Shown here piece after piece: positions 36,058 through 50,766 of a DNA stretch of 64,000 nt (position 1 is its first letter; each line of letters starts with the position of its first letter). The stretch spans positions 5,568,001-5,632,000 of the forward strand of contig OZ245365.1 in the NCBI GenBank assembly GCA_965226495.1. The letters are read 5' to 3'. This DNA is from Candidatus Marinacidobacterales bacterium (GTDB taxonomy: Bacteria; Acidobacteriota; Vicinamibacteria; Marinacidobacterales; DATDRI01). The notes beneath the pieces are model-generated. The model made no database searches. It had not been told where the DNA came from and saw only the letters and a list, made by a program, of their open reading frames with translations. The translations under genes were made by a program, and so were the position numbers.

Positions 36058-36211
36058 ACCATGCTCCGAGTCGGCGGTAGCTCCTGCCATTCTGGGGGAG
36101 CCGCGGAAGAAGGGGAATTCATGAAGGCATCCTTAATAGGGAAGTCGGGCGGACCCATTATAGATTTGGGGTCAGTTTTTCGGCAATCAAACGCCGGCAA
36201 GAAAACCACCC

Positions 36212-37963
36212 TCAAACGATCAGCCGCACACCACCTAGCTCCGCCAGCCCGTACAAGAAGTGGCCTCCGGGAGAGCCGATGAACATGAAATTCGTCGGAA
36301 CGTTCCACTCCTTAGACAGTTTCTGGATGAGCTTCGGGCCGAACTTACCGTGCTGCACCACGAACTCGATATCGATTTCAGGGTAGGCCTCGTCGAGGAA
36401 CTTGAGGTCTTTCTTGAGCCGCGGAGGAACCTCGCTTTCGTCCTGAACCACGGTGACGACCTTGATCCGGTTGGTGTGCTCGTTGTTCCGGACGTAGAGC
36501 ATCGCTTCGTTGAGGTTGTGGAGCTTCTCACCACGGGTGAAGAAAACAACCTGCTGTGAATTGATCTCCTCGATCTTGATGCGGATGGCCTGAGAAAGGG
36601 TGGTGGTGGTGTCGCCGATACTTTGGCTGATGCGCCTCAATATGAAAAGACACGCCTTGAGCAGCCCAATGCGTCCGAGCATGGCGAAGACCACCAGTAC
36701 CGTAGGTATGAAATAAATTAGGAACACGCGGAAGTAGGCCGGGTTGGCCAAGAGGTTCCCGGCCAGCCCTGCCAGTACCGCGAGGATTCCCACGATGAGA
36801 GCGAGCCAAGAAGCCCTCGATGGACGGGGAAGACGAGCTCTCTTGACCTTCAAGAGGATATTGCCGATGCCGAAAAGCACCATGACGGCGAGGAACGAGA
36901 TGGTATAGACGCCGGCGAGCTTGGTCAGTTCACCTTCGGTAATGTAGATGACGGAGGCGCTGATTAGGAAAAAACTAATAATGATGAAATGGCTCGTCCC
37001 CCGGCGATTAGTTTTGAGAAAGAACTGAGGAAGCCCTCGGTCCAGAGTCATGCGCCTCAACAAACCGGTGACACCAACATAGGACGTCAAGACCGCCCCG
37101 CTCAGAACGAGTCCCGCATCGACGGAAATTAGCCAGGAGAACCAAGCACCACCCGCGATACCGCCCATATGAGATAGGAGCGCCTCCTTGTGTGGCCCGA
37201 CCTCGGGAATGGGCACCAGCGCCAGCGCCAGAAAGGCCATGGCTGGATTGAAGATGCTCACCGCGATCCACATGTTCCGAAGCGTGCGGGGGAAGACATT
37301 CTCCGCCTGTTCCTCCACGAAGTTGGCAGAGCTTTCGAAGCCCGAGATGCCGAGCATTGCCGCTGCAAACCCGAAGAACAAGGCGCGGGGGAGGCTCGCC
37401 GTCGGTGTCTGGAAATTCGAGACCAGCACATCCAGACCATTGTTGGCAAGAAAGATGCCCCCGACCACTAGGAGTAACGTCAGTGTCACCAAGTGAGTGA
37501 TGAAAATGACGACCGCAACCTTCGCCGATTCGGTGATCCCGATAATGGTGAGCACCATGAAGACGGCGAGCAAAGCGACCGTGGCGGGAATGACGGGAAT
37601 CCCGTGCCACAAAGATTGAATGTAGTGCATGGCCTCGCTCGCCGAGATCACCGCAGTGGCCATATACGACAAAACGGTCAGGCATGCGGCCAGCGACGCC
37701 ATGCGTTTGCTGGTCGTGTTGAGAAGCGCGTTATAGGCGCCACCGTTTAGTGGTAGGGCGCCTACGACCTCGGCATAAATTCCACGAAAGAGATAGAGGA
37801 CCGCGGCAACGAAGAGCAGGACGAGCCCCGCCCATTTTCCCGCGGCCATGATCGCAAGCGCGGAAACGTAGAGGCACGACGAAGTGATGTCGTTACCGCA
37901 AATAGCGGTCGCCGGGAGCTCGCCCAGGCCTCCATGTTTTCTCTCGGTGACGTGCTCGGCCAC
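36212..37963 (-). CDS. APC-superfamily amino acid permease with C-terminal soluble domain
   Basis: AICGNDITSSCLY, LPLNGGAY, GISGFESSA; about 12-14 TM segments. Confidence 0.88.
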   Translation of the reverse strand: MAEHVTERKHGGLGELPATAICGNDITSSCLYVSALAIMAAGKWAGLVLLFVAAVLYLFRGIYAEVVGALPLNGGAYNALLNTTSKRMASLAACLTVLSYMATAVISASEAMHYIQSLWHGIPVIPATVALLAVFMVLTIIGITESAKVAVVIFITHLVTLTLLLVVGGIFLANNGLDVLVSNFQTPTASLPRALFFGFAAAMLGISGFESSANFVEEQAENVFPRTLRNMWIAVSIFNPAMAFLALALVPIPEVGPHKEALLSHMGGIAGGAWFSWLISVDAGLVLSGAVLTSYVGVTGLLRRMTLDRGLPQFFLKTNRRGTSHFIIISFFLISASVIYITEGELTKLAGVYTISFLAVMVLFGIGNILLKVKRARLPRPSRASWLALIVGILAVLAGLAGNLLANPAYFRVFLIYFIPTVLVVFAMLGRIGLLKACLFILRRISQSIGDTTTTLSQAIRIKIEEINSQQVVFFTRGEKLHNLNEAMLYVRNNEHTNRIKVVTVVQDESEVPPRLKKDLKFLDEAYPEIDIEFVVQHGKFGPKLIQKLSKEWNVPTNFMFIGSPGGHFLYGLAELGGVRLIV

Positions 37964-37990
37964 GTTATTACAGAGAGCTGTGACGAAGCA

Positions 37991-38608
37991 CTATTGGGGT
38001 TGGCGAAATGCGAAGACGATGTAGACGAAACCCGGAGCCGGGCGTCCCTCGTGACTCGCAGCGCTGAAGGTCCACGCCCTGGCCGCCTGCAGTGCCGCAC
38101 CGTCGAATCCGGAAGACTCGGTTATGGTCTTAGCGGACATCACCGAGCCGGTGTCTCCGACTTCGACCTCGACCAGCACGTAGGCGCTGCCGATGGCATT
38201 CGGCGGATAGTTGGGGACTTCGAGGGAGGTTGGAAAGGGAACCTCGTCGGAAGGCTGCGCGTCGACTTCCCTTGGCGCGTCGGGTTTGGGAAACATCAGC
38301 ATGGCGGGCCGGAAGACTCCCGCTACCAATACATGAGTGTCCACCCGTTGACCTCCGCCGCGGGCGGGATTGAAGGTCCAGCGACTAGCAGATGTCCGAA
38401 GGACTTCGGTAAAGGGCTCGACATCCACGAGGTCGCGTACATTGGTCACCGACCCGCGCGCGTCGACCGTTAGCTCCACGCCGACTACCGCCGCGGCCGC
38501 CGTCCGATAAGGTATTTCTCCTACTTGTGCGCTCGCGACGCGGGCCGGCTCGAACCTCTGCACTACCGTCAACGTCATCGCAAAAAAGAAGATCGCCGTT
38601 CTCAACAT
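37991..38608 (-). CDS. Protein with two TonB C-terminal-like domains
   Basis: Signal/anchor, then two repeats of V.V...G.V....A..WTF.PA...G; GGAGG RBS. Confidence 0.75.
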   Translation of the reverse strand: MLRTAIFFFAMTLTVVQRFEPARVASAQVGEIPYRTAAAAVVGVELTVDARGSVTNVRDLVDVEPFTEVLRTSASRWTFNPARGGGQRVDTHVLVAGVFRPAMLMFPKPDAPREVDAQPSDEVPFPTSLEVPNYPPNAIGSAYVLVEVEVGDTGSVMSAKTITESSGFDGAALQAARAWTFSAASHEGRPAPGFVYIVFAFRQPQ

Positions 38609-38686
38609 ACATTGCCTCCGAGTGTTTAGAACAAGGTATCAGAATCTGGCAGAGGTGTAAAAGTTGAACGTATCCTGAGCCCTCTG

Positions 38687-38721
38687 CCCCTCACCCTACC
38701 CTCACCCCAAAGGGAAGAGGG
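38687..38721. repeat. CCCTCACCC...GAGGG-type palindromic repeat
   Basis: CCCCTCACCCTACCCTCACCCCAAAGGGAAGAGGG; related to the element at 50608-50660. Confidence 0.45.
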
Positions 38722-38843
38722 AATAATAATTGCCGCCCGGGTGCACTGATTTGAACAAGAGAAACGATGGCTTCGATCTCGGCCGGGTCTCTGTGTTACC
38801 TTTGGTCGGTGCGTCGACGCCTATAGAATATCGGAGACATCCC

Positions 38844-40226
38844 ATGAACCGAATCCGACTCAAGTCACAGTCCGTTCTCGCCTTCCTCTTAGGCATCGGT
38901 TTCGCCAACCTCGCACCGGCACAAGATGCCCATTATTGGACGGATCAGTTCGGTAACCGCGCACGGCTTCTAGGCGGTGCGGTTGTCGGCAGCGTGAGAG
39001 ATCTCAGTGCCACCTACTACAACCCGGGGAGCTTGGCCTTGGTGCCGACTGCCGAGCTTCTTCTGGCCGGCAACGTCCTCAGCTACACACGTTACGACGC
39101 GACGACGGGTCCCCAACAGCAGAAGCTGTCCTCTTCGACCTTTGGCCTGAGCCCCTCGTTGTTCGCGGGTGAGGTTCCGAAAAAAGTCGTGGGCGACAAC
39201 CGACTCGCCTACTCTTTCATGACCCGCCAGGAAACCGAATTCCGACTGCAGGGTCGAGGCAGCCTTAGTGGATCCGATTTCGATGTCCCTAACCTCAATG
39301 TTGTCGCCGACAATCTCCAGGTCGAGCAGGACATGAGCGAGCATTGGTTCGGAGTTAGTTATTCGAGAAGGGCCACTGCACACGTGGGCGTCGGGGTCAC
39401 GACCTATCTCGCGGTTCGCAATCAGGCGATGCAAACCCTGAACTTCGCAACCGCACTCGGGAACGGAAACCGCGCGGGGGTTGCCATCCAGAACCGTCAG
39501 TTCAAATACCAAAACTGGGCCTTGCTCTGGAAGATCGGTGTTGCGACCCAGTTCGAAGGTTGGGACCTAGGCGCCACCGTGACAACACCAAGAGTAGGAT
39601 TCGCGGGAAGCGGCGGCACCGGGTACGACTCGACGGCGGTCGGTCAGGACATCAACCAGAGCGGCGACGCCCTGACCGAGGTTGCAACCAACACTCAGAC
39701 GGGTATCTCCTCGGACTACGAGACCCCGTTCTCGATCGCCGTCGGGGGTGCCTACCGTATAGGCGCTACGAAACTGCACGTGACCGGTGAATGGTTCGCT
39801 CCGATCGACGAGTTCGTGGTACTCGCCAGCCAGCCGTTCGTCGGACAGACCTCGGGTGAGCTCATAGACACGCAAGTAACGCGCTCCCTGACGGACGTTT
39901 TCAACGTTGCGGTGGGTGTCGAGCATGAGCTCAGCGAGAAGACGACGGTGTATGGAAGCTTCCGCACCGACTACAGCGGCGTCGATCCGGACTCCGCGGC
40001 TTCCGTGCCGGTCGCGGACTGGGATATCTACCACATCGCCGGTGGCGCGACGCTGAACGTCGGACGCTCCGAGTTCACCGTCGGAGCTATTTTGGCGAGA
40101 GGCGACTCTACCGCGAGTCGAATATTTGATCCGATCGGGGAAACCTCGCTACCTGGTCAAAATGAGGCCACGCTCGAGTACTTTAGGCTCTCCTTCATCC
40201 TCGGCTTTAACTTCGCATTTAACTGA
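38844..40226 (+). CDS. Outer-membrane beta-barrel protein (FadL/OmpP1-like)
   Basis: Signal peptide, LGGA...D.SATYYNPG.LA, alternating beta-strands and a C-terminal Phe. Confidence 0.75.
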   Translation: MNRIRLKSQSVLAFLLGIGFANLAPAQDAHYWTDQFGNRARLLGGAVVGSVRDLSATYYNPGSLALVPTAELLLAGNVLSYTRYDATTGPQQQKLSSSTFGLSPSLFAGEVPKKVVGDNRLAYSFMTRQETEFRLQGRGSLSGSDFDVPNLNVVADNLQVEQDMSEHWFGVSYSRRATAHVGVGVTTYLAVRNQAMQTLNFATALGNGNRAGVAIQNRQFKYQNWALLWKIGVATQFEGWDLGATVTTPRVGFAGSGGTGYDSTAVGQDINQSGDALTEVATNTQTGISSDYETPFSIAVGGAYRIGATKLHVTGEWFAPIDEFVVLASQPFVGQTSGELIDTQVTRSLTDVFNVAVGVEHELSEKTTVYGSFRTDYSGVDPDSAASVPVADWDIYHIAGGATLNVGRSEFTVGAILARGDSTASRIFDPIGETSLPGQNEATLEYFRLSFILGFNFAFN

Positions 40227-40262
40227 TCCGTCGCAACGGTTCTCTGACGACCGGGAACGACC

Positions 40263-41405
40263 ATGCATTCGAGCTACCGTAAATCTCTGTTCATATTGCT
40301 CGGCCTACTTTTCTTTCTCTCCATCTATCTCATTCGAATTCGCGGAGATATGGTCGACTTCCGAGTGAACTACGAGGCGGGGAGTCGGTTCCTGCAAGGA
40401 GAAAGCCTCTACCGGACCGACGACGGTCACTTCATGTTCAAGTACCTTCCGTTCTCGGCGTTGCTGTACGCCCCCCTGTCTCTCCTGCCGCTCGAGCTCG
40501 CGAAGGCCATCTGGTACGTCGCGCTCGTTCTATGCGCGGTCGGCATTTTCTACTTGTCGTATAAGATGGCCTCCGCCAACCGGGAAGTGACGACCGCGAT
40601 GATCGTTTTTCCTCCTCTGATCCTCGCCAAGTTCTTCTTCCGGGAGATGAAGCTGGGTCAGATCAACATCATCGTGGCTTTGATCCTGCTGTTCATGGTG
40701 TGGTCATTGATTTCCAAACGGCCGGTGCGGTCGGGGTTTTTCTGGGGGCTGGCGACATCCCTAAAACCCTACGGCATGATCTTCTTTCCGTATTTTGTCG
40801 TGAAAAAGCAGTGGACTGCTTTGGCGAGCGGGGTAGGCGTCATTTTCTTCGCACTTCTGGTTCCCTCGGTCTTCTACGGTATCCGAGGAAACTTCCACTT
40901 GCTCCGTGAGTGGGCGTCGACCCTCTCTCAATCGACACCCACGCTTCTTACCACGCACGATAACATCTCCATCGTCGCGTTCTGGTCGAAGTGGACTCAC
41001 AACGCAGTCCTCTCAAGCCTTTCCTTATGGGTCGCTGGTGCGATGCTGGCTGGGCTCGCCGCTTTGGTTTTGACGATGATTTCGAAGGGCAAAAAACTGG
41101 AGGAGCCGGTCGCCCTCGAGTGCGGCCTTCTACTCATGCTCATCCCTCTTGTCTCTCCACTCGGTTGGGATTACCAACTGCTGATGTCGGTCCTCGCCGT
41201 CACCATCCTCGTGTATCATTTCTTCGACTACTCCCGACCCTGGAGAACCCTTCTTGTGGTCAATTTCTGTACCATTTCCCTTTCCATTTACGACGTGATG
41301 GGGCGAAGTCTCTACCAGTCGTTCATGGCTTGGTCGGTTCTCACCGTCAACTTTCTGATTCTGGCCGGCTATTTGGGCTACCTCCGGCTCAGAAAATATG
41401 CCTAG
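40263..41405 (+). CDS. GT87/DUF2029-like membrane glycosyltransferase (GT-C)
   Basis: DF.V.Y.AG...G.SLY, F.YLP, GQIN, KP, SPLGW; polytopic. Confidence 0.82.
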   Translation: MHSSYRKSLFILLGLLFFLSIYLIRIRGDMVDFRVNYEAGSRFLQGESLYRTDDGHFMFKYLPFSALLYAPLSLLPLELAKAIWYVALVLCAVGIFYLSYKMASANREVTTAMIVFPPLILAKFFFREMKLGQINIIVALILLFMVWSLISKRPVRSGFFWGLATSLKPYGMIFFPYFVVKKQWTALASGVGVIFFALLVPSVFYGIRGNFHLLREWASTLSQSTPTLLTTHDNISIVAFWSKWTHNAVLSSLSLWVAGAMLAGLAALVLTMISKGKKLEEPVALECGLLLMLIPLVSPLGWDYQLLMSVLAVTILVYHFFDYSRPWRTLLVVNFCTISLSIYDVMGRSLYQSFMAWSVLTVNFLILAGYLGYLRLRKYA

Positions 41406-41492
41406 ACATTCATCGACCGCCCTCATCGTTTGCGGAAATCCTCCCCGTCGAATAACATCTCGGCATCTTTGAAGATAGGAACTAGTGAGCTA

Positions 41493-42227
41493 ATGAGTGA
41501 AGAAACGACACAGTCAGTCGACGACCATGTGCTGGCCCTCGAGCGCGACGGTTACGCCGTCGTACCCGAGGCCCTAGATGCGGACCTTCTCGCCGACCTC
41601 GTAAGCACCGTCGAATCCGTAAAGGAGGGAGCCGGAGTCCGCTCCCGAAACGGAATCTACGCCATCCGAAATCTGCTGCATCTCGCGCCGGGCGTAAAGC
41701 GGGCCCTCGAGTCCACGGTCGTCAAGGGCATCGTTGAATCGACACTGGGAGCCAAGGCCTTCTTGGCGGGCGGGCTTTACTTCGACAAGCATCCGGACGC
41801 CAACTGGAAGGTCCCCTGGAACCAGGACTCCACCATCACTGTCCGAGAGAAGGCCGACGTGACCGGATTCGGCCCCTGGACAATGAAGGCGGGCATCCAG
41901 CATGTACAGGCTCCACCCTTCGTGCTCTACGATTTGCTCACCTTGAGACTCCACCTCGATGGTTGTGACGAAGGACAAGGCGCACTGCGCGTGATTCCGG
42001 CTTCTCACAACTTCGGAAGGCTACCAACCGATAGCATTCCCCAGTTCACGCGAGGCGCTCACGAGACTTGCTGCGTTCCGAAAGGTGGCCTGCTGGCCAT
42101 GAAGCCGCTCCTCCTTCGTTCTTCTCCCGCCTCGGTCAATGGCGGATATCGGCGAGTCATCCACTTGGGTTTCGGCGCACGTGCGCTGCCCGCTCCTTTG
42201 GAGTGGCACGAACAGTACCGCTGGTAG
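41493..42227 (+). CDS. Phytanoyl-CoA dioxygenase (PhyH) family protein lacking both iron-binding His
   Basis: DGYAVV, FDK..ANWKVPW[N]QD, RLHLD, GALRVIPASH, MKPLLL[R]SS, RRVIH. Confidence 0.75.
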   Translation: MSEETTQSVDDHVLALERDGYAVVPEALDADLLADLVSTVESVKEGAGVRSRNGIYAIRNLLHLAPGVKRALESTVVKGIVESTLGAKAFLAGGLYFDKHPDANWKVPWNQDSTITVREKADVTGFGPWTMKAGIQHVQAPPFVLYDLLTLRLHLDGCDEGQGALRVIPASHNFGRLPTDSIPQFTRGAHETCCVPKGGLLAMKPLLLRSSPASVNGGYRRVIHLGFGARALPAPLEWHEQYRW

Positions 42228-42267
42228 GTCCACGGTTCTAGTGCCCTAGCGCCGCGCACTCCGGTCC

Positions 42268-43359
42268 ATGGACCCCATCGCGCACACCCTCGTCGGAGCG
42301 GCGCTCGCTCAGACCGGGCTAGGGCGCAAGACCGCCTGTGGAACGGCCGCTCTAGTTATTGGCGCCAACCTACCCGACATCGACGGCTTATCGTTGCTCG
42401 CCGGGCTCGATCCTTCACTGCTCTTCCGCCGGGGTTGGACGCACGGCGTACTGGCGCTCGTCTTGCTCCCGTTGGTGCTCACGGGAGTCCTCGTTTTCTG
42501 GAATCGTTTGAAGACATTCCCATCCGACGGGCCGCCTCTTCGAACTGGCGTGCTCCTCAGCTTGTCCTACTTCGCGATCGCCACGCACTCAACCCTCGAC
42601 TGGCTGAACAACTACGGCATGCGTTGGCTCATGCCCTTCGAGGGTCGGTGGTACTACGGCGACACGCTTTTCATCACCGACCCTTGGATCTGGCTCATGC
42701 TGGGTGGTGCGGTCTTTCTATTCCGCTCGCGCCGCGTCGCGAGCCTAGCCGCTTGGGCGACTCTCGCTGGGCTCTGGCTGCTGCTTCTATTCGGCGTGCC
42801 GGAGCTGTGGTCGGCGAAGGTCCTTTGGTGCATCGGACTCATCGTCTTCATCGTGCTGCGCGTCTGGCGCGTCGGCAGCGGGGAACGTGCTGCGAATCGC
42901 CTCGCCGCCGGTGCTACCGCCATCGTCTTCTTGTATATCGTTGCCATGTACGGCACGGCGCGGTACGCCCGCTTGGCGACAGAGAAGGATCTCGCCGACC
43001 GCGGAGTTCAGGTGGAGAGGATCATGATGGGACCGGTGCCGGTTACGCCCTTCGTCAAAGACGTCGTCGCCCAAACGCCCGAAGGCTATCGGTACGGCAA
43101 GGCGCGGCTTTTTCCCCGATTCGAGCTCGAGTTGGCCCCCAAACCGCTCCCTCTGCTCGAGGAGTCACCAGTAGTACAAAAGGCAATCGCATCACCGAGC
43201 GTTCGTGGCTTCATGAACTGGGCTCGTTTTCCTTTCGCGGACGTCGAGGAAAGCACATCGGCCTTCACCGTCTACCTATTGGATGCCAGATACACGCGCT
43301 CGAGGACGCAGGGTTTCGGAACGGCTCGCGTCGAGCTCTCGAAAGACCAGCTCGAATGA
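42268..43359 (+). CDS. Membrane-bound metal-dependent hydrolase (YdjM/DUF457-like)
   Basis: MDPIAH, ANLPDID, RRGWTH, H..LD..N.YG, D.LFI.DP. Confidence 0.85.
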   Translation: MDPIAHTLVGAALAQTGLGRKTACGTAALVIGANLPDIDGLSLLAGLDPSLLFRRGWTHGVLALVLLPLVLTGVLVFWNRLKTFPSDGPPLRTGVLLSLSYFAIATHSTLDWLNNYGMRWLMPFEGRWYYGDTLFITDPWIWLMLGGAVFLFRSRRVASLAAWATLAGLWLLLLFGVPELWSAKVLWCIGLIVFIVLRVWRVGSGERAANRLAAGATAIVFLYIVAMYGTARYARLATEKDLADRGVQVERIMMGPVPVTPFVKDVVAQTPEGYRYGKARLFPRFELELAPKPLPLLEESPVVQKAIASPSVRGFMNWARFPFADVEESTSAFTVYLLDARYTRSRTQGFGTARVELSKDQLE

Positions 43360-43519
43360 AGCAGTAGCTCACAGGAGAAGCGAAACCCCGCTTCGTCCAC
43401 TCGCGAAATCCCTTGCGCTCGGCATTTCGACGCAGAGACCGAACCTCCTCCGACCGCCGTACGTTTTGTGGAATTTCGCCCCAATTTGCCGAACGGGGCT
43501 AGGCATTTAGGGGGTTTTT

Positions 43520-44803
43520 ATGGTAGAAACGGTCATGCCGCCAACCAAAAAAGCAGCTACTCGTCCATCTCGTAAACCTAAATCCAAGGCCCGGACCAAG
43601 AAAAAAGGCGTTAAGCGGAGGACCGCGACGAAACGCAAGGCAAAGGCCCCGGCCCGCAAGAAGGCCGTCAAGAAGGCGGTGAAGTCCAAGAAAAAGGCAA
43701 CGTCCAAGAAGGTGACAAAGCGCAAGAAGATCACCAAGAAGAAGGCCCGGAAAAGGAAAGGCAAGAAGAAGGCGACGGCGTCGAGCGGAGTACCTCAATA
43801 CCTACTTTCCGTCGACGTCGAGAACATTCGTTGCTTTGGACCGACGCAGACGCTGCAACTTTCCGGCGATCGATCAACCCCCTATGCCTGGACCGTGATT
43901 TTTGGCGACAACGGCGTAGGCAAGACGACACTCCTCCAGGCGGTCTGCAGCATCGCGTCGACGCTCCAGGACCGAAAGGAAGTGCCGTCGTTCATCCGAT
44001 ACAACTGGCAGCCTCAAAGACGGACTACCCAGACGGCTCAGGTTACGGCGCGGGTGCTTCTCCGTCCACGGGAGGCCGCCCCGTTTACCGTGCGTTACGC
44101 ACCGCAACGACGGCGGACCAGTCCCCCGCCGCGGTGGGATTTCGACCGTGATGGTGCGATGAACTACTGCGGCTACGGTGCGTCTCGCCGGCATGGGCAA
44201 GCCGCGGATTCCGGACGTAAGCCGCTGGAGTCGTCCGGGGACGAAAGCCTGTTCATCGACGACGCGCAGCTTCTCAACGCCGAAGAGTGGTTCGTACAAA
44301 TGAGCCACTTCGGCCCCGCCCGTCGCCAGCTTCGGGAAGCTCGCGCGGCAAAGAAAGTTCGCGACCTGCTCGCGTCCATCCTCCTCGACGTCTCCGACAT
44401 TCGCATCGCGTCGCGGCAAGGCCGCGCCGGCGTCGAGTTCAAGACACACTTCGGCTGGGTGCCCTTGAAAGGGCTCAGCATGGGCTACCGCACGCTTATC
44501 GCGTGGATCGTCGACTATGCCCGCCGCCTCTACGTCTTGAATCCGCGGAGCTCGAACCCCCTCGCGGCCCCCGCCGTCGTCTGTGTCGATGAAATCGATC
44601 TCCACTTGCACCAACGGTGGCAGCGTAATCTGATGACGTTCCTAACGGAGACCTTTCCGAAGACACAGTTCATCTGTACGGCACACAATCGTACCGTGGC
44701 ACAGGCCGTCCCCCGCGATGCCAACCTCGTTCTATTGCGGCGCAAAGGAGACCACGTCGAGATTCATAACCATGCTGCGGAACTCTTGGAAGGCGTACGT
44801 TGA
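43520..44803 (+). CDS. ABC-type (AAA_21/PtuA-like) ATPase with histone H1-like Lys-rich N-terminus
   Basis: VENIRCF, Walker A GDNGVGKT, YGASR, signature LSMGY, Walker B VDEIDLHLH..WQ, QFICTAH; a basic tail of about 80 aa precedes the ATPase in the same frame. Confidence 0.85.
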   Translation: MVETVMPPTKKAATRPSRKPKSKARTKKKGVKRRTATKRKAKAPARKKAVKKAVKSKKKATSKKVTKRKKITKKKARKRKGKKKATASSGVPQYLLSVDVENIRCFGPTQTLQLSGDRSTPYAWTVIFGDNGVGKTTLLQAVCSIASTLQDRKEVPSFIRYNWQPQRRTTQTAQVTARVLLRPREAAPFTVRYAPQRRRTSPPPRWDFDRDGAMNYCGYGASRRHGQAADSGRKPLESSGDESLFIDDAQLLNAEEWFVQMSHFGPARRQLREARAAKKVRDLLASILLDVSDIRIASRQGRAGVEFKTHFGWVPLKGLSMGYRTLIAWIVDYARRLYVLNPRSSNPLAAPAVVCVDEIDLHLHQRWQRNLMTFLTETFPKTQFICTAHNRTVAQAVPRDANLVLLRRKGDHVEIHNHAAELLEGVR

Positions 44804-44828
44804 TCGGGCTCGAAGTCGAAGACAAGTA

Positions 44829-44847
44829 GCCTGAACAATCGTTGGGC
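44829..44847 (-). other. Possible truncated attC half-site (R''-L'')
   Basis: Minus strand GCCCAAC-GATT-GTTCAGGC fits RYYYAAC plus an L''-like box; no matching right half found. Confidence 0.3.
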
Positions 44848-44961
44848 GGCCCTCCCACCTAGGCCTCGGGTCGCAAGAACGGCGCCACGTCTCTGCGTGG
44901 AACCGCAACTATCATCCCACCGGACCTCGCGAGAAGTAGGGCACGTTTACCGGATCGGATC

Positions 44962-45600
44962 TTAGGCGCTCCCTGTCGAAGTCGTCGCATTCGTTTGATC
45001 GATCGGCGACTCTGGCTCCCGAGGATCCTCAAGAGGAGGGCCTGATCGGCACAACGGACAATCGCTTGGTTTCCACAGGTCGAACCTGCGGCGATGCAGC
45101 GTCTCCACGGGTACGCCCTGATCGGCGAAGTGGATCAGGGCCGCGTCGCCAAGGACTAGGAGCGCACCGACGACAATGGTCGATGCACCTGCGGCTGCGA
45201 GGGCCACGGCAGTGGCTCGCGCGGACGACCCGGCGCTGATGACGTCGTCAACCACGGCGATCGATTGGCCGCGAACCAGCCGCTTCAACGCGCGCGGCAA
45301 CTGATACTCCGCGGTGAACAGTGAAGAGTCGCCAGGCGCGACGAGCTCTGTGTAACAGAAACGAGAGCCGAGTGACGTCGCGATGGCCTGAGCGAGAAAC
45401 GCGCCCCCGAGCAACGGTCCGCACACCGCCGCGGCCGCGTGAGGTCGCAGCCGGTCGGCCAGGGCGGCAACCAGGGGTGCGACAGTCGCCGGGTCGGCAA
45501 AGAGCCCGTCGAGCGTGAGCCAGATGTCGGAGTGGTAACCAGATTCCAGGAGAAAGTGACCCCGGCGAGCCGGCAACGCTTCCAAGATGTCTCCGGTCAT
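44962..45600 (-). CDS. Orotate phosphoribosyltransferase-like PRTase
   Basis: GHFLLESGYHS, GPLLGG and the PRPP-binding VVDDVISAGSS; C-terminal CPLC. Confidence 0.82.
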   Translation of the reverse strand: MTGDILEALPARRGHFLLESGYHSDIWLTLDGLFADPATVAPLVAALADRLRPHAAAAVCGPLLGGAFLAQAIATSLGSRFCYTELVAPGDSSLFTAEYQLPRALKRLVRGQSIAVVDDVISAGSSARATAVALAAAGASTIVVGALLVLGDAALIHFADQGVPVETLHRRRFDLWKPSDCPLCRSGPPLEDPREPESPIDQTNATTSTGSA

Positions 45601-45629
45601 CGCTCTCTCTGGTAGCCAGATGCTCCTAG

Positions 45630-46040
45630 TCAGTCCTTCTCACTGCTTATGAAACGATAGATGGCCGCGCCCAGCACAGCACCCACAATGGGGGCCACCC
45701 AGAAAAGCCACAACTGCGAAACAGCCCAATCGCCAACAAACACTGCTACGCCCGTGCTGCGTGCAGGATTCACGGAGGTATTCGTAACTGGAATACTGAT
45801 CAAGTGAATCAGTGTGAGCCCAAACCCAATTGCAATGGGCGCAAAACCTTGCGGTGCAAGCTTGTCGGTCGCACCGAGAATTATGAGCAAGAACATCAGG
45901 TCATGACAACTTCGGTGACCAGCGCTGCCAGCAAGGAGTATCCGCCCGGCGAATGTTCGCCATAGCCATTTGAAGCAAAACCCGCCGAAACTTCAAAGCC
46001 GGCCTTTCCACTGGCGATGAGTTGCACCATAACGCTTCAT
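45630..46040 (-). pseudogene. aqpZ: Aquaporin Z with large internal deletion and frameshift
   Basis: GGAGG RBS and MKRYGA join directly to LIASGKAGF...[15 protein letters not shown]...EVVMT, then GFAPIAIG...NTSVNPARS...LWLFWVAP. The first NPA half is missing and the DNA is visibly more AT-rich than the flanks. Confidence 0.88.
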
Positions 46041-46071
46041 GCTCTCCTCCCCTTGTTTGTCGATGAAGACC

Positions 46072-46090
46072 GCCTAACAGCCGGTTAGGG
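46072..46090 (-). other. attI-like integron simple site
   Basis: Minus strand CCCTAAC-CGGCT-GTTAGGC (L box, 5-bp spacer, GTTRRRY R box), 31 bp before the aqpZ ATG. Confidence 0.45.
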
Positions 46091-46293
46091 GCTGCGCAAG
46101 GGGTCGATGTCATCGACGTTTTGTTAGCTAGGTTACCGGTTGCTCAATCAACCGCCCATTTTCTTTTCGTAGCTGCGTCGGTATGCGGACAGCCTGTTTC
46201 GGTACAGGAAAAGGCTGACCCCGTACCCGATCCCGTCGAACACCAATGAGACAATTTGGAACCAAGCGGTAGCGAAACTTTGAAGGAAGGAAT

Positions 46294-46370
46294 TGGCGCG
46301 CCCTGGGCGATTCGAACACCCGACCTACTGATTCGTAGTCAGTCACTCTATCCAGCTGAGCTAAGGGCGC
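46294..46370 (-). tRNA. tRNA-Arg(ACG)
   Basis: GCGCCCT acceptor, TAGCTCAGCTGGATAGAG D arm, ACTGA-CTACGAA-TCAGT anticodon arm, GTTCGAAT T loop, encoded CCA; 77 nt. Confidence 0.97.
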
Positions 46371-46412
46371 GCCCTGGTGAGAACCGAATGCTAACAAAGG
46401 TTCCGCGGGTGA

Positions 46413-47339
46413 TCAAATCCCCACCGACGGCTCGCTCATTCCATCGGTAAGGTGGGCATGCGCCATGTGGGGTGTGTTGAAAGCAAATCCCAGACTTCCA
46501 TCGGGTGAAGTAATAATGATGCCACCTCGTCCGTCGGTGCGCATCTCGAGGAAACCGATGGCTCGGCGGGCAGCCTCCGGAGCGGGAACGCCGGAGCCCA
46601 AAAACTCTACGGCTCGCCGCGCCATCAACACGCGGATAATCCCTTCACCCCATCCCGTCGAGGTAGCGGCACCGAGCCGATCATCCGCATAAAGGCCGGA
46701 GCCGACGAGCGGGGAGTCTCCCACCCGACCGGGAAGCTTCAGGAGCGACCCCCCGGTGGAGCTTGCCGCGGCAAGATGCCCGTGCGAGTCCCGCGCCACG
46801 GCCCCCACGGTGTCGCCCGGCCCGAAGCTAATCGGATACTCCTTTTGCCTCTTCTGTTCACTAAGTTCCTTGGCCTTTTCCCAACGCGCGCGTTCACGTT
46901 CGACGATTAGAGTGGACGGCGCGCAGGTGGCAACTCCCTGAGAACGAGCGAACGCGACGGCGCCTGCTCCGACGAGGAAGACGTGAGGCGAACGATCCAT
47001 GACGCGCCTTGCCAATTCCAAAGGATGTTCGATGCCTTGTACTGCCGCCACCGCTCCGACCCCGAGGTTGGCCCCTTCCATGATCGCGGCGTCGAGCTCT
47101 ACTTCTCCAGCCTGGTTCAAAACCGCGCCGCGACCGGCGTTGAAAGTAGCATCATCCTCCATGAGTCGGACCGCTTCCCCCACCGCGTCCACCGAGGAGC
47201 CGCCACTCTCCAGCACTTCGAACCCCGCACGCGCTGCCCGGGCAACCCCTTCGCGATGTGGTTCTACCTCGTTTGCCGGAGTCGCCCATGCGCCTCCATG
47301 GACCAAGATGGCTCTTCTCGATGACACGTTGTTTCCCAT
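46413..47339 (-). CDS. iaaA: Isoaspartyl peptidase/L-asparaginase (Ntn hydrolase)
   Basis: VHGGA, FNAGRGA, ELDAAIM, DTVGAVA nucleophile Thr, STGG, GRVGDSP, TGWGE. Confidence 0.92.
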   Translation of the reverse strand: MGNNVSSRRAILVHGGAWATPANEVEPHREGVARAARAGFEVLESGGSSVDAVGEAVRLMEDDATFNAGRGAVLNQAGEVELDAAIMEGANLGVGAVAAVQGIEHPLELARRVMDRSPHVFLVGAGAVAFARSQGVATCAPSTLIVERERARWEKAKELSEQKRQKEYPISFGPGDTVGAVARDSHGHLAAASSTGGSLLKLPGRVGDSPLVGSGLYADDRLGAATSTGWGEGIIRVLMARRAVEFLGSGVPAPEAARRAIGFLEMRTDGRGGIIITSPDGSLGFAFNTPHMAHAHLTDGMSEPSVGI

Positions 47340-47416
47340 TTCGAGTTCGGGATTGTTGCCCAGCAGAAGGTCCCGGCGCAAGCCGAACCGCTGCCGGCAT
47401 CAGGAAAAGGAGGATG

Positions 47417-47491
47417 TGGTAGCGCTACGGGGAATCGAACCCCGGTTTGATGGCTGAGAACCACCCGTCCTAACCCCTAGACGATAGCGCC
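47417..47491 (-). tRNA. tRNA-Glu(CTC)
   Basis: GGCGCTA acceptor, GTCTAGGGGTTAGGAC D arm, GGTGG-TTCTCAG-CCATC anticodon arm, GGTTCGATTCC, encoded CCA; 75 nt. Confidence 0.96.
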
Positions 47492-47679
47492 ACCAAGGAA
47501 GCTCGGATGAGCCGAGCAATCGAGGCTAACACAGGGTGCGGACCACTGTCAAAATAACCGCATATCCGAGGTCTAAGTTGGTGAGGCCCTCTGACGTATG
47601 CTAAAATGTTCTGTAACTCCTGACAATTTAGTGGCTTTTTCCGTCCATCGAGGCGGTTTTCGAGCGAGAAAACCGGGCA

Positions 47680-50571
47680 ATGCTAGGCCGTCTTAAGAAG
47701 CGGATCGAAAACTTGATGGGTGACACCTCCGCCGCGACGGCGGAGCCTACCCCCGAAACGTCCGACCCCTCGTTCGTTAAAGCGCCCCGGCAACGGCCCC
47801 AATGGCAGCACGATCCCGAGGTGGCCAAGAAATTGGCCCGCCGGGAGGCTCAGCGACGGGAGGTGAGGCTCCTCCTGAAGGAACGGATTCACAATCGCTG
47901 CGTCGTTCTAATGAGTGAGGTTCGGAACCACCTTCTTTCCGAGATCCATAACTCCCTTGAAGAGCATAGTGGCCCGAGAACGCTCAAAGGCATTCTCGAG
48001 ATCACCTTGGATCCGAATTTTATTCGAACTCTCGACAACAAGATCGACAGTCTCGCTTTCAAGCTCATCGAAAGACTGAAGAGCGAGTTCCGAAAAGAAA
48101 AAGAAATCGATCCGCTCTTGCCAATGTCGTCGACCCTCGTCGAGGAGCTCAGGACGTACCGCGACCAAATCGTTCGGACTCACATACTCGACCAAGTAGA
48201 GGTCTTCGCTTTGCCGCAACTCGGAGAGGTCTTTCCCGAGGGTGGCGCGTCACCCGAGCAACTGAAGCAGGGCATCACGAGTTATTGGAAGACTTGCCAC
48301 GAGGCGATCGACCTCTTCTTTCACGCCGTCGAGATGTCGCTCCTGAACGGAACCAGAGAAGGCCTTCGAATTGACGCCGCCGTCATCCGAGAACGACTCC
48401 TCGCAGCGCAGTATCGCAATGGCTATCGCGCTCTCGGAATTCGCCTAACCGAGGAGTATGGACAAGTAGCTCAGCTTCAAATGTCGAAAGGTAATCGCCT
48501 CGATAAGATGCGTCCTCAAATCGACCGCCAAGTCGTGGAGGGGATCATCGTGCCCCTGGCCTTCTTCATCCGCGACCGTGTAGAACCGGAGCCCCTGGAA
48601 GCGCTGCGAAGTCGAGCCGAACTCTTTCGTGACATCGTAGACAAGATGATCACTAGCGGGGATCCCTTCAGCCGAACCGCGGAAGCCCTGAAGCCCCTCT
48701 TGAGAAGAAGCATTGAACAAGCGCGCCCCATCGTGCTGGAGGCTTTTTCCTACCTTGCCGCTCCCATCGAAAGTCTCAAACCGACGGAAGTGCATCGCGC
48801 CACCGCTCTTCTTCATATGTTCGAGACACTCCTGAAACCCGAACTCGATGAGAAGGCCCTCCAGGCCGTCGAACAGAACGTCCGACTCAACAAAAATCAG
48901 TACTACATCTATACGCACATTGACCGGACCTACCCGAGATTGCTGCCCCTATTGCATCCACTGGACCGCGTCCAACCTTTGGACGCGGACTTCTTCCTGA
49001 AGTTCCTCCAAGGGTTCGAGCCCTCCGCGGAAGCCATCGAGACCATGGCCCGCCGACTCGGCTACTTGCCACCGGACGATCCCTCTCCCAACGATTCCTT
49101 GGGCCTGATTCGAGCGATCGCCGTCCTCGCCCTACCCCGACGAGAGCTCACTTCCTGGCAGTTTCTGTACAGCCCCACTCCGCCGACCCCAAAGGAGCTC
49201 GCGGTTCTCGCCAAGACCGTAACTCAGCAGTTTCGACCGACCGGCATCGGGGCCTACGACCGTCAGCAGTCCATCGGCGCCCATCCAGTGCCCGTCGACC
49301 TGCCCACCGCCCTCGGCGCAATCGACTTCCAGCCGGACAAAAAGAATCGACTCGAAGCCTTTACAAAAGAAGTTCGTGAGCTCATCGAGGCGGGCAAGGC
49401 GTCGGATCTACGCGAGGCACTCGACCACCTCCGGCGTTTTCGCCGAGCCGTCGAAGAACAACGCATCAAACGAGGTTTGGTGGACACCGAGACATCCCCT
49501 TACGTCGGCGAAATTTGGTTGAAGGAGTCCGGAGAGATGGTCGGCATTCTTTCTTACGATGGTCCAGGGTTCGGCGAAATTCCCATCGAGCAGATGGTTC
49601 GTAAGCCGGCCGGAGGAAACCATGCCGAGGTGGAACGGGCACTCCGCCGGCAGCTCACGAATCAGGCGCTGATCTACAAGGCCTTCCACAATCTGTTCAC
49701 CGGCGAAAAAGACGTTGCGCTCTCCCACCGTCGAACCCTTCCCACCTATCTCAAGACTACTTACGAGAAGATCGAAACGAAGAGAAACGCGTTGCTCATA
49801 CACCTCCGCAACGCCCGCTTGCTCCTCAGGCGTATGGAGGAGTTCGCGGCGATGATTCTGGAGTCTCACCCCTCTACCAAGAACGATACCGCAACCGTTG
49901 CCCAAATACTTACCGGTCTGAGCCGCAAAATCGATCAGTTCCTGGCTGGAGTGGACAAGTCCTCATCGCCGAAAGATCTTGCTCGCTTTGCCCGAGAGCA
50001 CGAACGCATACTCAAGTACTTGAACACCGCCATCCTGCATTCCGTCAATCCCTGGCTCGAGCGTCAGACCCGGAACCTCGGAACGGAATTCGAGTTCCGC
50101 GAGGAAGAGGTGGTGGAAGCCATTCGTGTAGCGGTCTTGGCGAACAAGATGGATTGGAATGAGGTCACCAGGTGTAAGGTCAATCCAATCCGAGGCACAC
50201 TGGGATGTCGAGCGCTACTCGAGCTCCGGGACGGCGCTTCCAAGGTGGTGCTTTGCGAGTTCGATCGCCGTTACCAACGTTGGAAGGTCAACCACATCGC
50301 ACCACTCGTCATGGACGTGGTCCGAGCGGAATTGGTTCGCCTAGGTCACACCCTTCCTCAGAAGTACGATGAGAAATTCGAGCAAGCAACGTTCAGTCTC
50401 GACGAACCGGCTTGCCGCTTTATGCTGAGGAAGGACGGCGTAGCGCGAGTCGAAGCGACCCTGGTTCTCAAAACCCACCCGACCGGCCACGAGTGGCATG
50501 TCGTTTACCTCAAGTGGGACGACGACGTTCTTATCGATCGCGCCAATCCTCTCGCCGAACAAGCCGAGTAG
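47680..50571 (+). CDS. Large hypothetical cytoplasmic protein (963 aa)
   Basis: Uninterrupted ORF, charged and helical-looking, with no TM segment or signal peptide and no recognised motif. Confidence 0.8.
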   Translation: MLGRLKKRIENLMGDTSAATAEPTPETSDPSFVKAPRQRPQWQHDPEVAKKLARREAQRREVRLLLKERIHNRCVVLMSEVRNHLLSEIHNSLEEHSGPRTLKGILEITLDPNFIRTLDNKIDSLAFKLIERLKSEFRKEKEIDPLLPMSSTLVEELRTYRDQIVRTHILDQVEVFALPQLGEVFPEGGASPEQLKQGITSYWKTCHEAIDLFFHAVEMSLLNGTREGLRIDAAVIRERLLAAQYRNGYRALGIRLTEEYGQVAQLQMSKGNRLDKMRPQIDRQVVEGIIVPLAFFIRDRVEPEPLEALRSRAELFRDIVDKMITSGDPFSRTAEALKPLLRRSIEQARPIVLEAFSYLAAPIESLKPTEVHRATALLHMFETLLKPELDEKALQAVEQNVRLNKNQYYIYTHIDRTYPRLLPLLHPLDRVQPLDADFFLKFLQGFEPSAEAIETMARRLGYLPPDDPSPNDSLGLIRAIAVLALPRRELTSWQFLYSPTPPTPKELAVLAKTVTQQFRPTGIGAYDRQQSIGAHPVPVDLPTALGAIDFQPDKKNRLEAFTKEVRELIEAGKASDLREALDHLRRFRRAVEEQRIKRGLVDTETSPYVGEIWLKESGEMVGILSYDGPGFGEIPIEQMVRKPAGGNHAEVERALRRQLTNQALIYKAFHNLFTGEKDVALSHRRTLPTYLKTTYEKIETKRNALLIHLRNARLLLRRMEEFAAMILESHPSTKNDTATVAQILTGLSRKIDQFLAGVDKSSSPKDLARFAREHERILKYLNTAILHSVNPWLERQTRNLGTEFEFREEEVVEAIRVAVLANKMDWNEVTRCKVNPIRGTLGCRALLELRDGASKVVLCEFDRRYQRWKVNHIAPLVMDVVRAELVRLGHTLPQKYDEKFEQATFSLDEPACRFMLRKDGVARVEATLVLKTHPTGHEWHVVYLKWDDDVLIDRANPLAEQAE

Positions 50572-50607
50572 TAGGCTGTACCAACGAAGTTGGTACCACC
50601 TCTTTTA

Positions 50608-50660
50608 CCTCTCCCCCGACCGCGGGGGAGAGGTCGTCCGCCGAAGGCGGGCGGGTGAGG
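50608..50660. repeat. Double-hairpin palindromic repeat (REP-like)
   Basis: ACCTCTCCCCCG-AC-CGCGGGGGAGAGGT followed by GTCCGCC-GAA-GGCGGGC and GGGTGAGG. Confidence 0.6.
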
Positions 50661-50766
50661 AGGTCGTGGATAGCGGCGATGAAGTCTAGTATCGATTTCA
50701 TTGTTTCAAGACCATAGCTTCCTCGTTCTTGATTGATTGCCCTTCTTTTTCACCGTATGATGCGGG

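Follow-up and report, generated by a model that had tools for sequence, protein, structure and literature searches.

Within a 64,000-nt window of the genome of Candidatus Marinacidobacterales bacterium, a member of the Acidobacteriota (contig OZ245365.1, positions 5,568,001 to 5,632,000), we examined a forward-strand open reading frame (ORF) at window positions 43520..44803, which encodes a polybasic N-terminal tail followed in the same frame by an ATPase of the PtuA type known from Septu defence systems. The ORF runs from an ATG to a TGA (stop codon at 44801-44803), specifies 427 amino acids (aa) and is present in a single copy in the genome, which consists of one contig of 6.34 Mb. It had been singled out in a sequence-only reading of the window, made by a model without database searches, which described a histone H1-like tail fused to an orphan PtuA-type ATPase.

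The tail occupies residues 6-90 (43535..43789, forward strand), is made of Lys, Arg, Ala, Thr, Ser and Pro, and is predicted to be disordered by an AlphaFold2 model in which the predicted local distance difference test score (pLDDT) lies below 50 at residues 1-70 and 72-88. Counting the 80 residues from MPPTKK (residue 6, nt 43535) gave 33 Lys, 10 Arg and neither Asp nor Glu, the same figures as had been obtained by hand, and the net charge amounts to +42 over residues 1-88 and to +13 over the core (residues 89-427). No Pfam model matched residues 1-85 at E<=1. A filter for Lys-rich segments (a 50-aa window with K>=15, K+R>=20 and D+E<=2) was passed by only 4 of the 34,045 ORFs of at least 60 aa in the genome, so that the Lys-rich tail is far from what chance would produce. 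Its reading frame bears the coding signature of this genome: the GC content at third codon positions (GC3) is 0.72 in the frame of the tail vs 0.39 and 0.54 in the other two frames, and AAG accounts for 0.70 of its Lys codons vs 0.67 genome-wide (1,935 long ORFs).

The tail passes into a complete ABC-type ATPase with no stop codon or change of frame at the junction, in agreement with the sequence-only reading, and all four of the ATPase motifs are present. Contigs from two runs of two studies (X4 and X10), either of which may be the source of the window itself, cover positions 43300-45000 with 0 differences and 0 gaps. RNA-library contigs of one study (X17 and X18) match 43622-43845, 44022-44214, 44196-44414 and 44544-44797 at 0 differences, the first of these metatranscriptome matches bridging the junction between tail and core; the flanks (43300-43621 and 44798-45000) and the gaps within the ORF that they leave uncovered are uninformative. 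Since carry-over of DNA is possible, these contigs are compatible with transcription and do not prove it.

Structure alignment, PADLOC and charge delimit the ATPase core at residues 89-427 (43784..44800, forward strand), which has the PtuA fold. All of its motifs lie on the same strand. Walker A, GDNGVGKTT (residues 129-137; 43904..43930), was matched by a regular expression in 57/57 members of the clade of tailed proteins described below, the ABC signature LSMGYRT (residues 319-325; 44474..44494) occurs in 56/57, and the DEIDLHLH of the Walker B/D-loop VVCVDEIDLHLH (residues 353-364; 44576..44611) in 57/57; the H-loop reads CTAHNR (residues 386-391; 44675..44692). The sequence-only reading had named DEIDLHLHPxWQ as typical of the ATPases of Septu, retron and related defence systems; here the motif is DEIDLHLHQRWQ, with a Q where partnered relatives carry P. 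Beside the catalytic motifs the protein shows two changes relative to these relatives, HLHP to HLHQ and TAHSP to TAHNR, and within the signature motif it carries Met at the position held by Gln in retron PtuA and by Leu in Septu-type relatives.

The assignment to PtuA, proposed on motifs, was borne out by a search with defence-system hidden Markov models (PADLOC PtuA, PDLC00304: E 3.5e-93, residues 85-420 on profile positions 8-357 of 444), by sequence matches in the PDB and by the fold. Pfam AAA_21 (PF13304) matched at E 3.3e-17 (63.9 bits vs a gathering cut-off of 27), SMC_N and AAA_23 matched weakly, and all 16 Pfam matches at E<=1 were P-loop ATPase families, with no TOPRIM or other nuclease domain among them, so that the protein is not a fusion of the OLD/Gabija type. 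The NCBIfam equivalog model for retron-type PtuA (NF041760) gave 130.4 bits, below its cut-off of 500. Twelve PDB sequences matched at E<=0.001, some of them named PtuA or retron Ec78/Ec83 ATPase and the rest 'AAA family ATPase', and a search of the protein Atlas returned generic AAA_21 clusters only. Foldseek matched the model to solved PtuA structures at E 1e-17 to 3e-20, and VIA-align superposed the model core on Septu and retron PtuA at Z 26-27, with a root-mean-square deviation (rmsd) of 2.9-3.5 A over 306-326 residues. The next-best folds were SMC, cohesin, condensin and Rad50 heads (Z 17.6-19.1, identity 13-17%); the protein shares the head fold of the SMC/Rad50/RecF group at these Z values and has no long coiled-coil insertion between the two halves of the head, its core being 338 aa long with a longest predicted helix of 20 residues. 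The protein is a PtuA-type ATPase descended from Septu PtuA.

A homodimer was predicted with a score of 0.79, where the highest of 3 controls reached 0.00. At least 88% of contacts are common to the three runs, the pLDDT of the partner is at least 83, and the mark applied to this score was reached by 20/30 proteins solved as pairs and by 1/23 solved as single chains. In the predicted dimer, Walker A residues 129-136 of one copy contact signature residues 318-323 of the other, and the model accordingly presents a canonical ATP-sandwich homodimer, although this result may owe to its resemblance to dimers of PtuA or SMC already solved.

Loss of the PtuB-docking extension and gain of positive charge

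The core ends at ELLEGVR, and positions 358-444 of the PADLOC PtuA profile have no match in it. Tail-less relatives (n=71) extend a median of 82 aa past this C-terminus; in 18/18 rows of the tail clade, 0 residues are found there. In this C-terminal stretch, the tail-less relatives nearest to the protein, 440-490 aa long and 40-46% identical to it, carry a conserved GWRxDQxLTSxLFGLE...LPTGET; a regular expression for the motif, which matched 43/150 representatives, was too strict to serve as a count. At the level of structure, model residues 93-427 align to residues 1-400 of the 465-aa Septu PtuA of E. coli (8eea_D), and the model core aligns to residues 11-477 of the 550 residues of Ec78 PtuA. 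In the passages of PMC12819146 and PMC13376987 that deal with Ec78, PtuA's C-terminal extension (residues 457-550), contributed once by each subunit of the dimer, is described as sandwiching the C-terminal domain of the HNH nuclease PtuB, and as critical for toxicity.

The gene for this nuclease is missing as well. Among the tail-less relatives with a callable ORF, 59/72 are followed within 40 nt by an ORF of at least 200 aa, mostly with a 4-nt overlap, and the four such partner ORFs that were tested all proved to be PtuB (PDLC00339, E 3e-79 to 4e-102). A home-made profile built from the 59 partner ORFs found no PtuB at E<=10 among the 34,045 ORFs of the window's own genome, and a 40-sequence version of it recovered 19/19 left-out PtuBs as a control; a search of the same genome with PDLC00339 was likewise empty and is not relied on, since its control matched in none of 14 genomes. 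The sequence-only reading had called the ATPase an orphan from its surroundings, and among the flanking ORFs scanned no HNH, TOPRIM or reverse transcriptase (RT) gene indeed follows it; with the genome-wide profile search, the description now covers the genome. At one orthologous locus (L034) a 274-aa ORF begins 11 nt downstream, and was judged by eye to be spurious, being rich in Arg, Ser and Gly and having no HNH motif. The tail clade has thus lost both the PtuB-docking C-terminal extension and the ptuB gene.

What the clade has gained is positive charge. The net charge of the tail ranges from +13 to +53 in 18/18 clade rows, and that of the core from +8 to +14 (isoelectric point, pI, 9.7) in the same 18/18, vs a median of -6 (pI 5.8) in the 71 relatives. 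Lys or Arg is specific to the clade at 16 positions, of which roughly half fall within residues 153-198, and 6 acidic positions have been lost. The N-terminal tail is absent from Septu PtuA, whose start aligns at model residue 93. The clade has therefore acquired a disordered Lys/Arg tail of 30-120 aa, and its ATPase head has turned from acidic to strongly basic.

Distribution, descent and selection

An intact orthologue was found in 12/40 relatives (10/17 in family f2, 2/7 in f1 and 0/16 in f3). At the DNA level, 12/12 of these have an open and basic N-terminal extension of 58-98 aa counted from a conserved 'MP' start, with the longest ORFs reaching further upstream, and 12/12 share the C-terminal end ...EL[LM]EGVR. 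Broken or fragmentary copies occur in four f2 genomes: in G008 (L014) the frame is interrupted by stops (2 TGA, 1 TAA), in G022 (L015) and G026 (L016) the match is split over two frames, and in G038 (L017) a 50-aa C-terminal remnant is left. One further genome, G007, which gave no match to the tailed ATPase and did give one to RecA, was counted in the tallies only. The weak matches in f3 (E 1e-18 to 1e-22; 36-49% identity over ~90-135 aa) were set aside as other AAA_21/PtuA-type ATPases. A sample of 300 further genomes, drawn evenly from the phylum, yielded no copy of the tailed ATPase; its two matches (E 1e-43 and 1e-50), in open frames 475-485 aa long, were partner-type PtuAs or other AAA_21/PtuA-type ATPases and not orthologues. 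Among the genomes sampled, the tailed lineage is confined to the window's own order of Acidobacteriota.

Database proteins extend this picture. Of the 58 closest, at 59-90% identity, 46 are tailed (29-122 aa, 35-53% K+R), 9 are short and 3 are fragments. The sequences of the 9 short entries open with the core's first conserved strand or partway into it (e.g., ...VPLYLLS, VRCFGP), and V or L is the first residue in 7/9, a non-ATG start, so that they look like miscalled or cut starts. Such tail-less annotations, together with the broken copies in four relatives, could be taken to mean that the gene is a decaying, functionless remnant of a Septu operon, or that the tail is untranslated or an artefact of assembly or annotation. 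This explanation is highly improbable and is already contradicted by the data on selection and conservation: 7 close pairs give a ratio of nonsynonymous to synonymous substitution rates (dN/dS) of 0.04-0.11 for the core, Walker A and Walker B have been preserved in 57/57, and the tail stays open and basic in every intact orthologue. The GC3 signature of the tail, the identical contigs in the runs of two studies and the RNA-library contig over the junction (43622-43845) speak against it too. The fusion is thus no artefact, and a genuine single gene is conserved here within one order of Acidobacteriota. The sequence-only reading had itself raised the doubt that two genes had been wrongly joined or that no homologue keeps the tail; since the fusion is kept in 12/12 intact orthologues and in 46/58 close database homologues, that doubt falls away.

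A maximum-likelihood tree of 89 cores, computed without the tail and the C-terminal columns, places the 18 tailed proteins together on a single branch, with a Shimodaira-Hasegawa-like approximate likelihood ratio test (SH-aLRT) support of 100. The stem of this branch is long, at 1.23 changes per site, and its inner branches measure ~0.01-0.34 (0.01-0.14 within a 13-row orthologue subclade), and the clade is nested, with a support of 96, among partnered PtuAs from Acidobacteriota, Armatimonadota and Bacteroidota. The tree has a midpoint root only; it leaves out L054 and L067 (no ORF called), L108 (a fragment) and L034-L039 (largely duplicates of the orthologues carrying G handles), and of the P-proteins it includes only P0047-P0050 and P0052. 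Its topology argues for a single origin of the tail clade. In a library of 1.84 billion proteins clustered at 50% identity, the clade amounts to one full-length representative (514 bits) plus fragments (one of 206 aa, 310 bits), the next full-length representative scoring 259 bits, and a strongly basic N-terminus was found only in the clade's own representatives among the best 150.

The two parts of the protein evolve in different ways. The dN/dS of the tail is 0.3-1.2, so that its sequence drifts under a fixed composition. The core of the 11 orthologues outside the genus is 82.5-84.3% identical to that of the window protein, vs 77-88% for RecA in the same genomes (G032 and G024, from which RecA could not be extracted, were left out of the comparison). 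Together with the dN/dS values given above, these comparisons show purifying selection on the core about as strong as that on RecA. Synonymous divergence (dS) of the core is saturated (~1-2) in most pairs between genera, like that of RecA, and is near that of RecA in 3/4 pairs within genera (0.25-0.33 vs 0.25-0.42), being lower for G018-G016 (0.20 vs 0.27); as within-genus dS follows RecA in these 3/4 pairs, it points to long vertical maintenance of the gene. In three pairs dS is far below that of RecA (G034-G003, 0.30 vs 1.51; G010-G003, 0.47 vs 1.10; G034-G010, 0.63 vs 1.15), and these values indicate at least one fairly recent transfer of the single gene between families (G034 = L003, G010 = L005, G003 = L006). 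No recognisable mobile element is attached to the gene transferred between families.

Genomic surroundings

The gene lies between a YdjM-family membrane protein upstream and a convergent phosphoribosyltransferase downstream, among ordinary envelope, metabolic and signalling proteins. A same-genus genome (G002), compared by blastn of window positions 36000-52000 against locus L021, is collinear with the window over 36212-39484 and 41933-44958. Collinearity ends at 44958, ~155 nt past the stop codon and close to a tRNA-Arg gene, which agrees with the view that the gene sits at the edge of a tRNA-proximal variable region. The flanks are common only with this same-genus genome, the neighbours within +/-10 kb being unrelated at all other loci; RecA, by contrast, keeps one of two arrangements of neighbours across families (+/-1.5 kb). 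At 12 orthologous loci we catalogued 71 neighbour ORFs (of 78 listed; six L031 rows and one antisense ORF of L023 were dropped), which include pyrroloquinoline-quinone dehydrogenases, amidohydrolases, GAF/PAS sensors and kinases, and 3 transposase ORFs. No coherent defence system was found among these 71, the PADLOC matches being generic kinase, sigma-54 activator and helicase domains.

Several other features of the region were recorded. The ~2.4 kb between the two collinear blocks (39485-41932), holding a GT87 glycosyltransferase gene and part of a PhyH gene, have no counterpart in the 20-kb stretch of G002 compared. Beside the tRNA-Arg gene (46294-46370, reverse strand) lies the remnant of an aquaporin (MIP) gene at 45630-46030 on the same strand: an 88-aa ORF covers positions 149-222 of 222 of the Pfam MIP model, the N-terminal half is gone where the tRNA begins, and a 44-aa ORF in another frame just upstream (45896-46030) appears by eye to be a further piece. 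Two forward-strand ORFs, of 498 aa (38730-40226) and 963 aa (47680-50571), have no Pfam match at E<=0.001.

Elsewhere in the genome, only three other ORFs pass the Lys-rich filter. One encodes a DNA enzyme, subunit B of topoisomerase VI, which here bears an N-terminal extension of basic character (G000:C1:67784-69670, reverse strand), another is a 212-aa, almost wholly basic ORF with no Pfam match (5077929-5078567, reverse strand), a candidate H1-like nucleoid protein, and the third is a glyoxalase/bleomycin-resistance-family protein with a basic N-terminus (2044030-2044620, forward strand).

The start of the gene itself carries a conserved nucleotide motif, (A/G)TG-R-TA-V-AA-M (43520..43529, forward strand), 5-6 nt 5' of the ATG of 'MP...'. 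By eye, in the printed sequences, it is present in 12 of the 13 orthologous loci (the window's own and L002-L013), L007 being the one that lacks it. It may represent either five extra N-terminal codons or a -10-like or initiation element, and because A is fixed at every would-be third codon position in a GC-rich genome, it suggests a signal at the level of nucleotides rather than conserved residues. An extended -10 promoter with a leaderless mRNA was considered for it; a simple sigma-70 scan gave no promoter.

Putative role and comparison with known systems

Our favoured reading, held with middling confidence, is that the gene encodes an exapted, effector-less PtuA ATPase bound to DNA, which would serve in the nucleoid or in DNA maintenance as a factor that is conserved and yet dispensable. 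In its present form, the ATPase probably acts on DNA unaided. Tail and basic head together would keep the protein attached to nucleic acid, most probably the DNA of the chromosome, with no sequence preference; ATP would drive the canonical head-to-head dimerisation and possibly the formation of higher, PtuA-like oligomers; and the DNA-bound molecules might then bridge, clamp or coat DNA in the manner of SMC/Rad50/RecF-type heads, with no nuclease output. The role would thus be one exapted from an immune scaffold, rather than that of a nuclease module of the Septu type. ATP is more likely to act here as a switch than as a motor, because stand-alone PtuA is reported, in the parts of PMC12819146 and PMC13376987 that concern it, to organise its oligomers by binding ATP and not by hydrolysing it.

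Several points weigh against this proposal. As stand-alone PtuA is reported not to hydrolyse ATP, an ATP 'motor' cannot be assumed. RNA, ribosomes, polyphosphate or acidic membranes would be equally possible ligands of the polybasic tail. The gene also behaves as an accessory gene: it is intact in 12/40 relatives with four broken copies, did not turn up in the further 300 genomes from the phylum, lacks a fixed position outside the genus, whereas RecA retains its neighbours across families, and seems to have passed between families at least once (core dS for G034-G003 of 0.30 vs 1.51 for RecA). This patchiness, together with the transfer, the Septu ancestry and the synteny break near a tRNA gene, also fits a defence gene.

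A one-protein immune gene is accordingly a possible, though less favoured, alternative. Here a polycationic PtuA would sit on the DNA of the cell or on incoming phage DNA, infection (sensed through a phage protein or a drop in ATP) would cause it to oligomerise, and replication or transcription would be blocked by coating or condensing of the DNA, with DNA binding taking the place of nuclease cleavage as the effector step. The direct descent from Septu PtuA and the nesting among partnered systems are in line with this, as are the patchy presence, pseudogenes, shifting position and one inferred transfer between families, the ~155 nt that separate the gene from the synteny break near tRNA-Arg, and the transposases among the neighbours (3/71). 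The ATP drop is as proposed for Septu in the portion of PMC12819146 that sets out an activation model. Against it stand the lack of a defence island in the window or at the 12 orthologous loci, where only generic PADLOC domains were matched, and the single copy per genome. RecA-like constraint, with saturated dS between genera and a within-genus dS like that of RecA in 3/4 pairs (lower for G018-G016), would moreover be unusual for immune genes of fast turnover.

Four of our results go beyond what had been noted from the sequence: the loss of the docking extension, the basic core, the RecA-like constraint and the lack of a defence island around the gene. Because of these four, the odds shift from a defence protein towards an exapted cellular role. 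A more specific form of the latter, which we put forward tentatively, is that the immune scaffold has been domesticated into a chromatin protein, a 'histone-tailed mini-SMC head' for ATP-dependent bridging or compaction of nucleoid DNA, restricted to one order of Acidobacteriota, kept throughout the divergence of its families and occasionally passed between them.

Disordered tails rich in Lys and Arg are also characteristic of ribosomal and RNA-binding proteins, and the target of the tail could be a polyanion other than DNA, such as RNA or ribosomes, tRNA, polyphosphate or an acidic membrane, in which case the ATPase would regulate translation or RNA metabolism. We regard this as unlikely. The PtuA family does have a connection to RNA, because the Septu/retron PtuAB systems are reported to end in cleavage of tRNA-Tyr; the cutting of RNA and DNA in those systems is done, however, by PtuB, which is absent here. 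A match to the NCBIfam model of ABC-F ribosomal protection proteins (residues 17-158, E 1.4e-7) scored 30.8 bits, far under the cut-off of 380, and covers only the low-complexity tail and the P-loop. In structure the protein comes closest, after PtuA, to the DNA-binding heads of SMC and Rad50, and one of the three other Lys-rich ORFs of the genome is a subunit of a DNA topoisomerase.

As compared with known systems, the window protein stands close to Septu PtuA of E. coli (PDB 8EE4, 8EEA, 8SUX), with which it shares the fold (Z 26.0, rmsd 2.9-3.1 A over 306-311 residues), the motifs including DEIDLHLH, a signature residue other than Gln and, as predicted here, the ATP-sandwich dimer. It differs from Septu PtuA in that the PtuB-docking C-terminal extension (~65-85 aa) is absent from the protein and ptuB from the genome, in its ~85-aa polybasic N-terminal tail, in a core that is basic and not acidic, and in HLHQ and TAHNR for HLHP and TAHSP. 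Because the C-terminal extension and the PtuB partner are missing and the equivalog score falls short, the protein should not be filed as a Septu system.

The best structural matches are PtuA effectors of type I-A retrons (Ec78/Eco7 and Ec83; PDB 9NNB, 9KJZ, 9E90, 9N69), with Z up to 27.1. Retron PtuAs illustrate that the protein is able to gain extensions at its N-terminus, and loops of positive charge, with which to grip the multicopy single-stranded DNA (msDNA), as described in the relevant part of PMC12819146. In these retron proteins the added N-terminal part is helical, in contact with the RT, unlike the predicted disordered polycation of the window protein; the window protein also has no C-terminal extension, and scores 130 bits vs the NCBIfam cut-off of 500. 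No retron operon was recognised: among the flanking ORFs scanned there is no RT or PtuB/HNH gene, and no neighbour is conserved at the 12 loci (a non-coding RNA was not searched for). The heads of SMC, Rad50 and RecF-type proteins have the next-best folds, and their ATP-driven engagement on DNA is the mechanism proposed here; the window protein lacks both a coiled-coil arm and a partner of the Mre11-like or kleisin kind, and its identity to them is 13-17%.

H1-like tails rich in Lys, Ala and Pro are known in bacteria from Hc1/Hc2, HupB, AlgP and PhaF. The tail described here resembles them in its acid-free composition (K, A, R, T, S, P) and predicted disorder, a likeness in composition only, with no match to a sequence family, and it is joined to an ATPase of immune type. 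A tail of this kind is also found on topoisomerase VI-B of the same genome, and polybasic tails would thus be a rare DNA-affinity tag in this organism, carried by four ORFs.

Searches of the literature returned no tailed or partner-less PtuA and no such combination of tail and ATPase; supplements were not covered, and the phylogeny of 6,295 PtuA/PtuB sequences belonging to PMC12819146 may hold members of the clade. If the protein does bind and bridge DNA, it would be a clear natural case of an immune ATPase exapted to a function on the chromosome; if it is instead a defence protein, it would provide immunity without any enzyme effector. As a minimal, partner-free PtuA it offers a means of asking what the ATPase itself senses and does. 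Parts of defence systems are usually studied as fast-evolving modules bound to their operons; here, in a large and poorly studied lineage of soil and sediment, a Septu ATPase has shed its nuclease together with the surface that held it, has re-charged its whole surface and has since been kept under a constraint like that of RecA.

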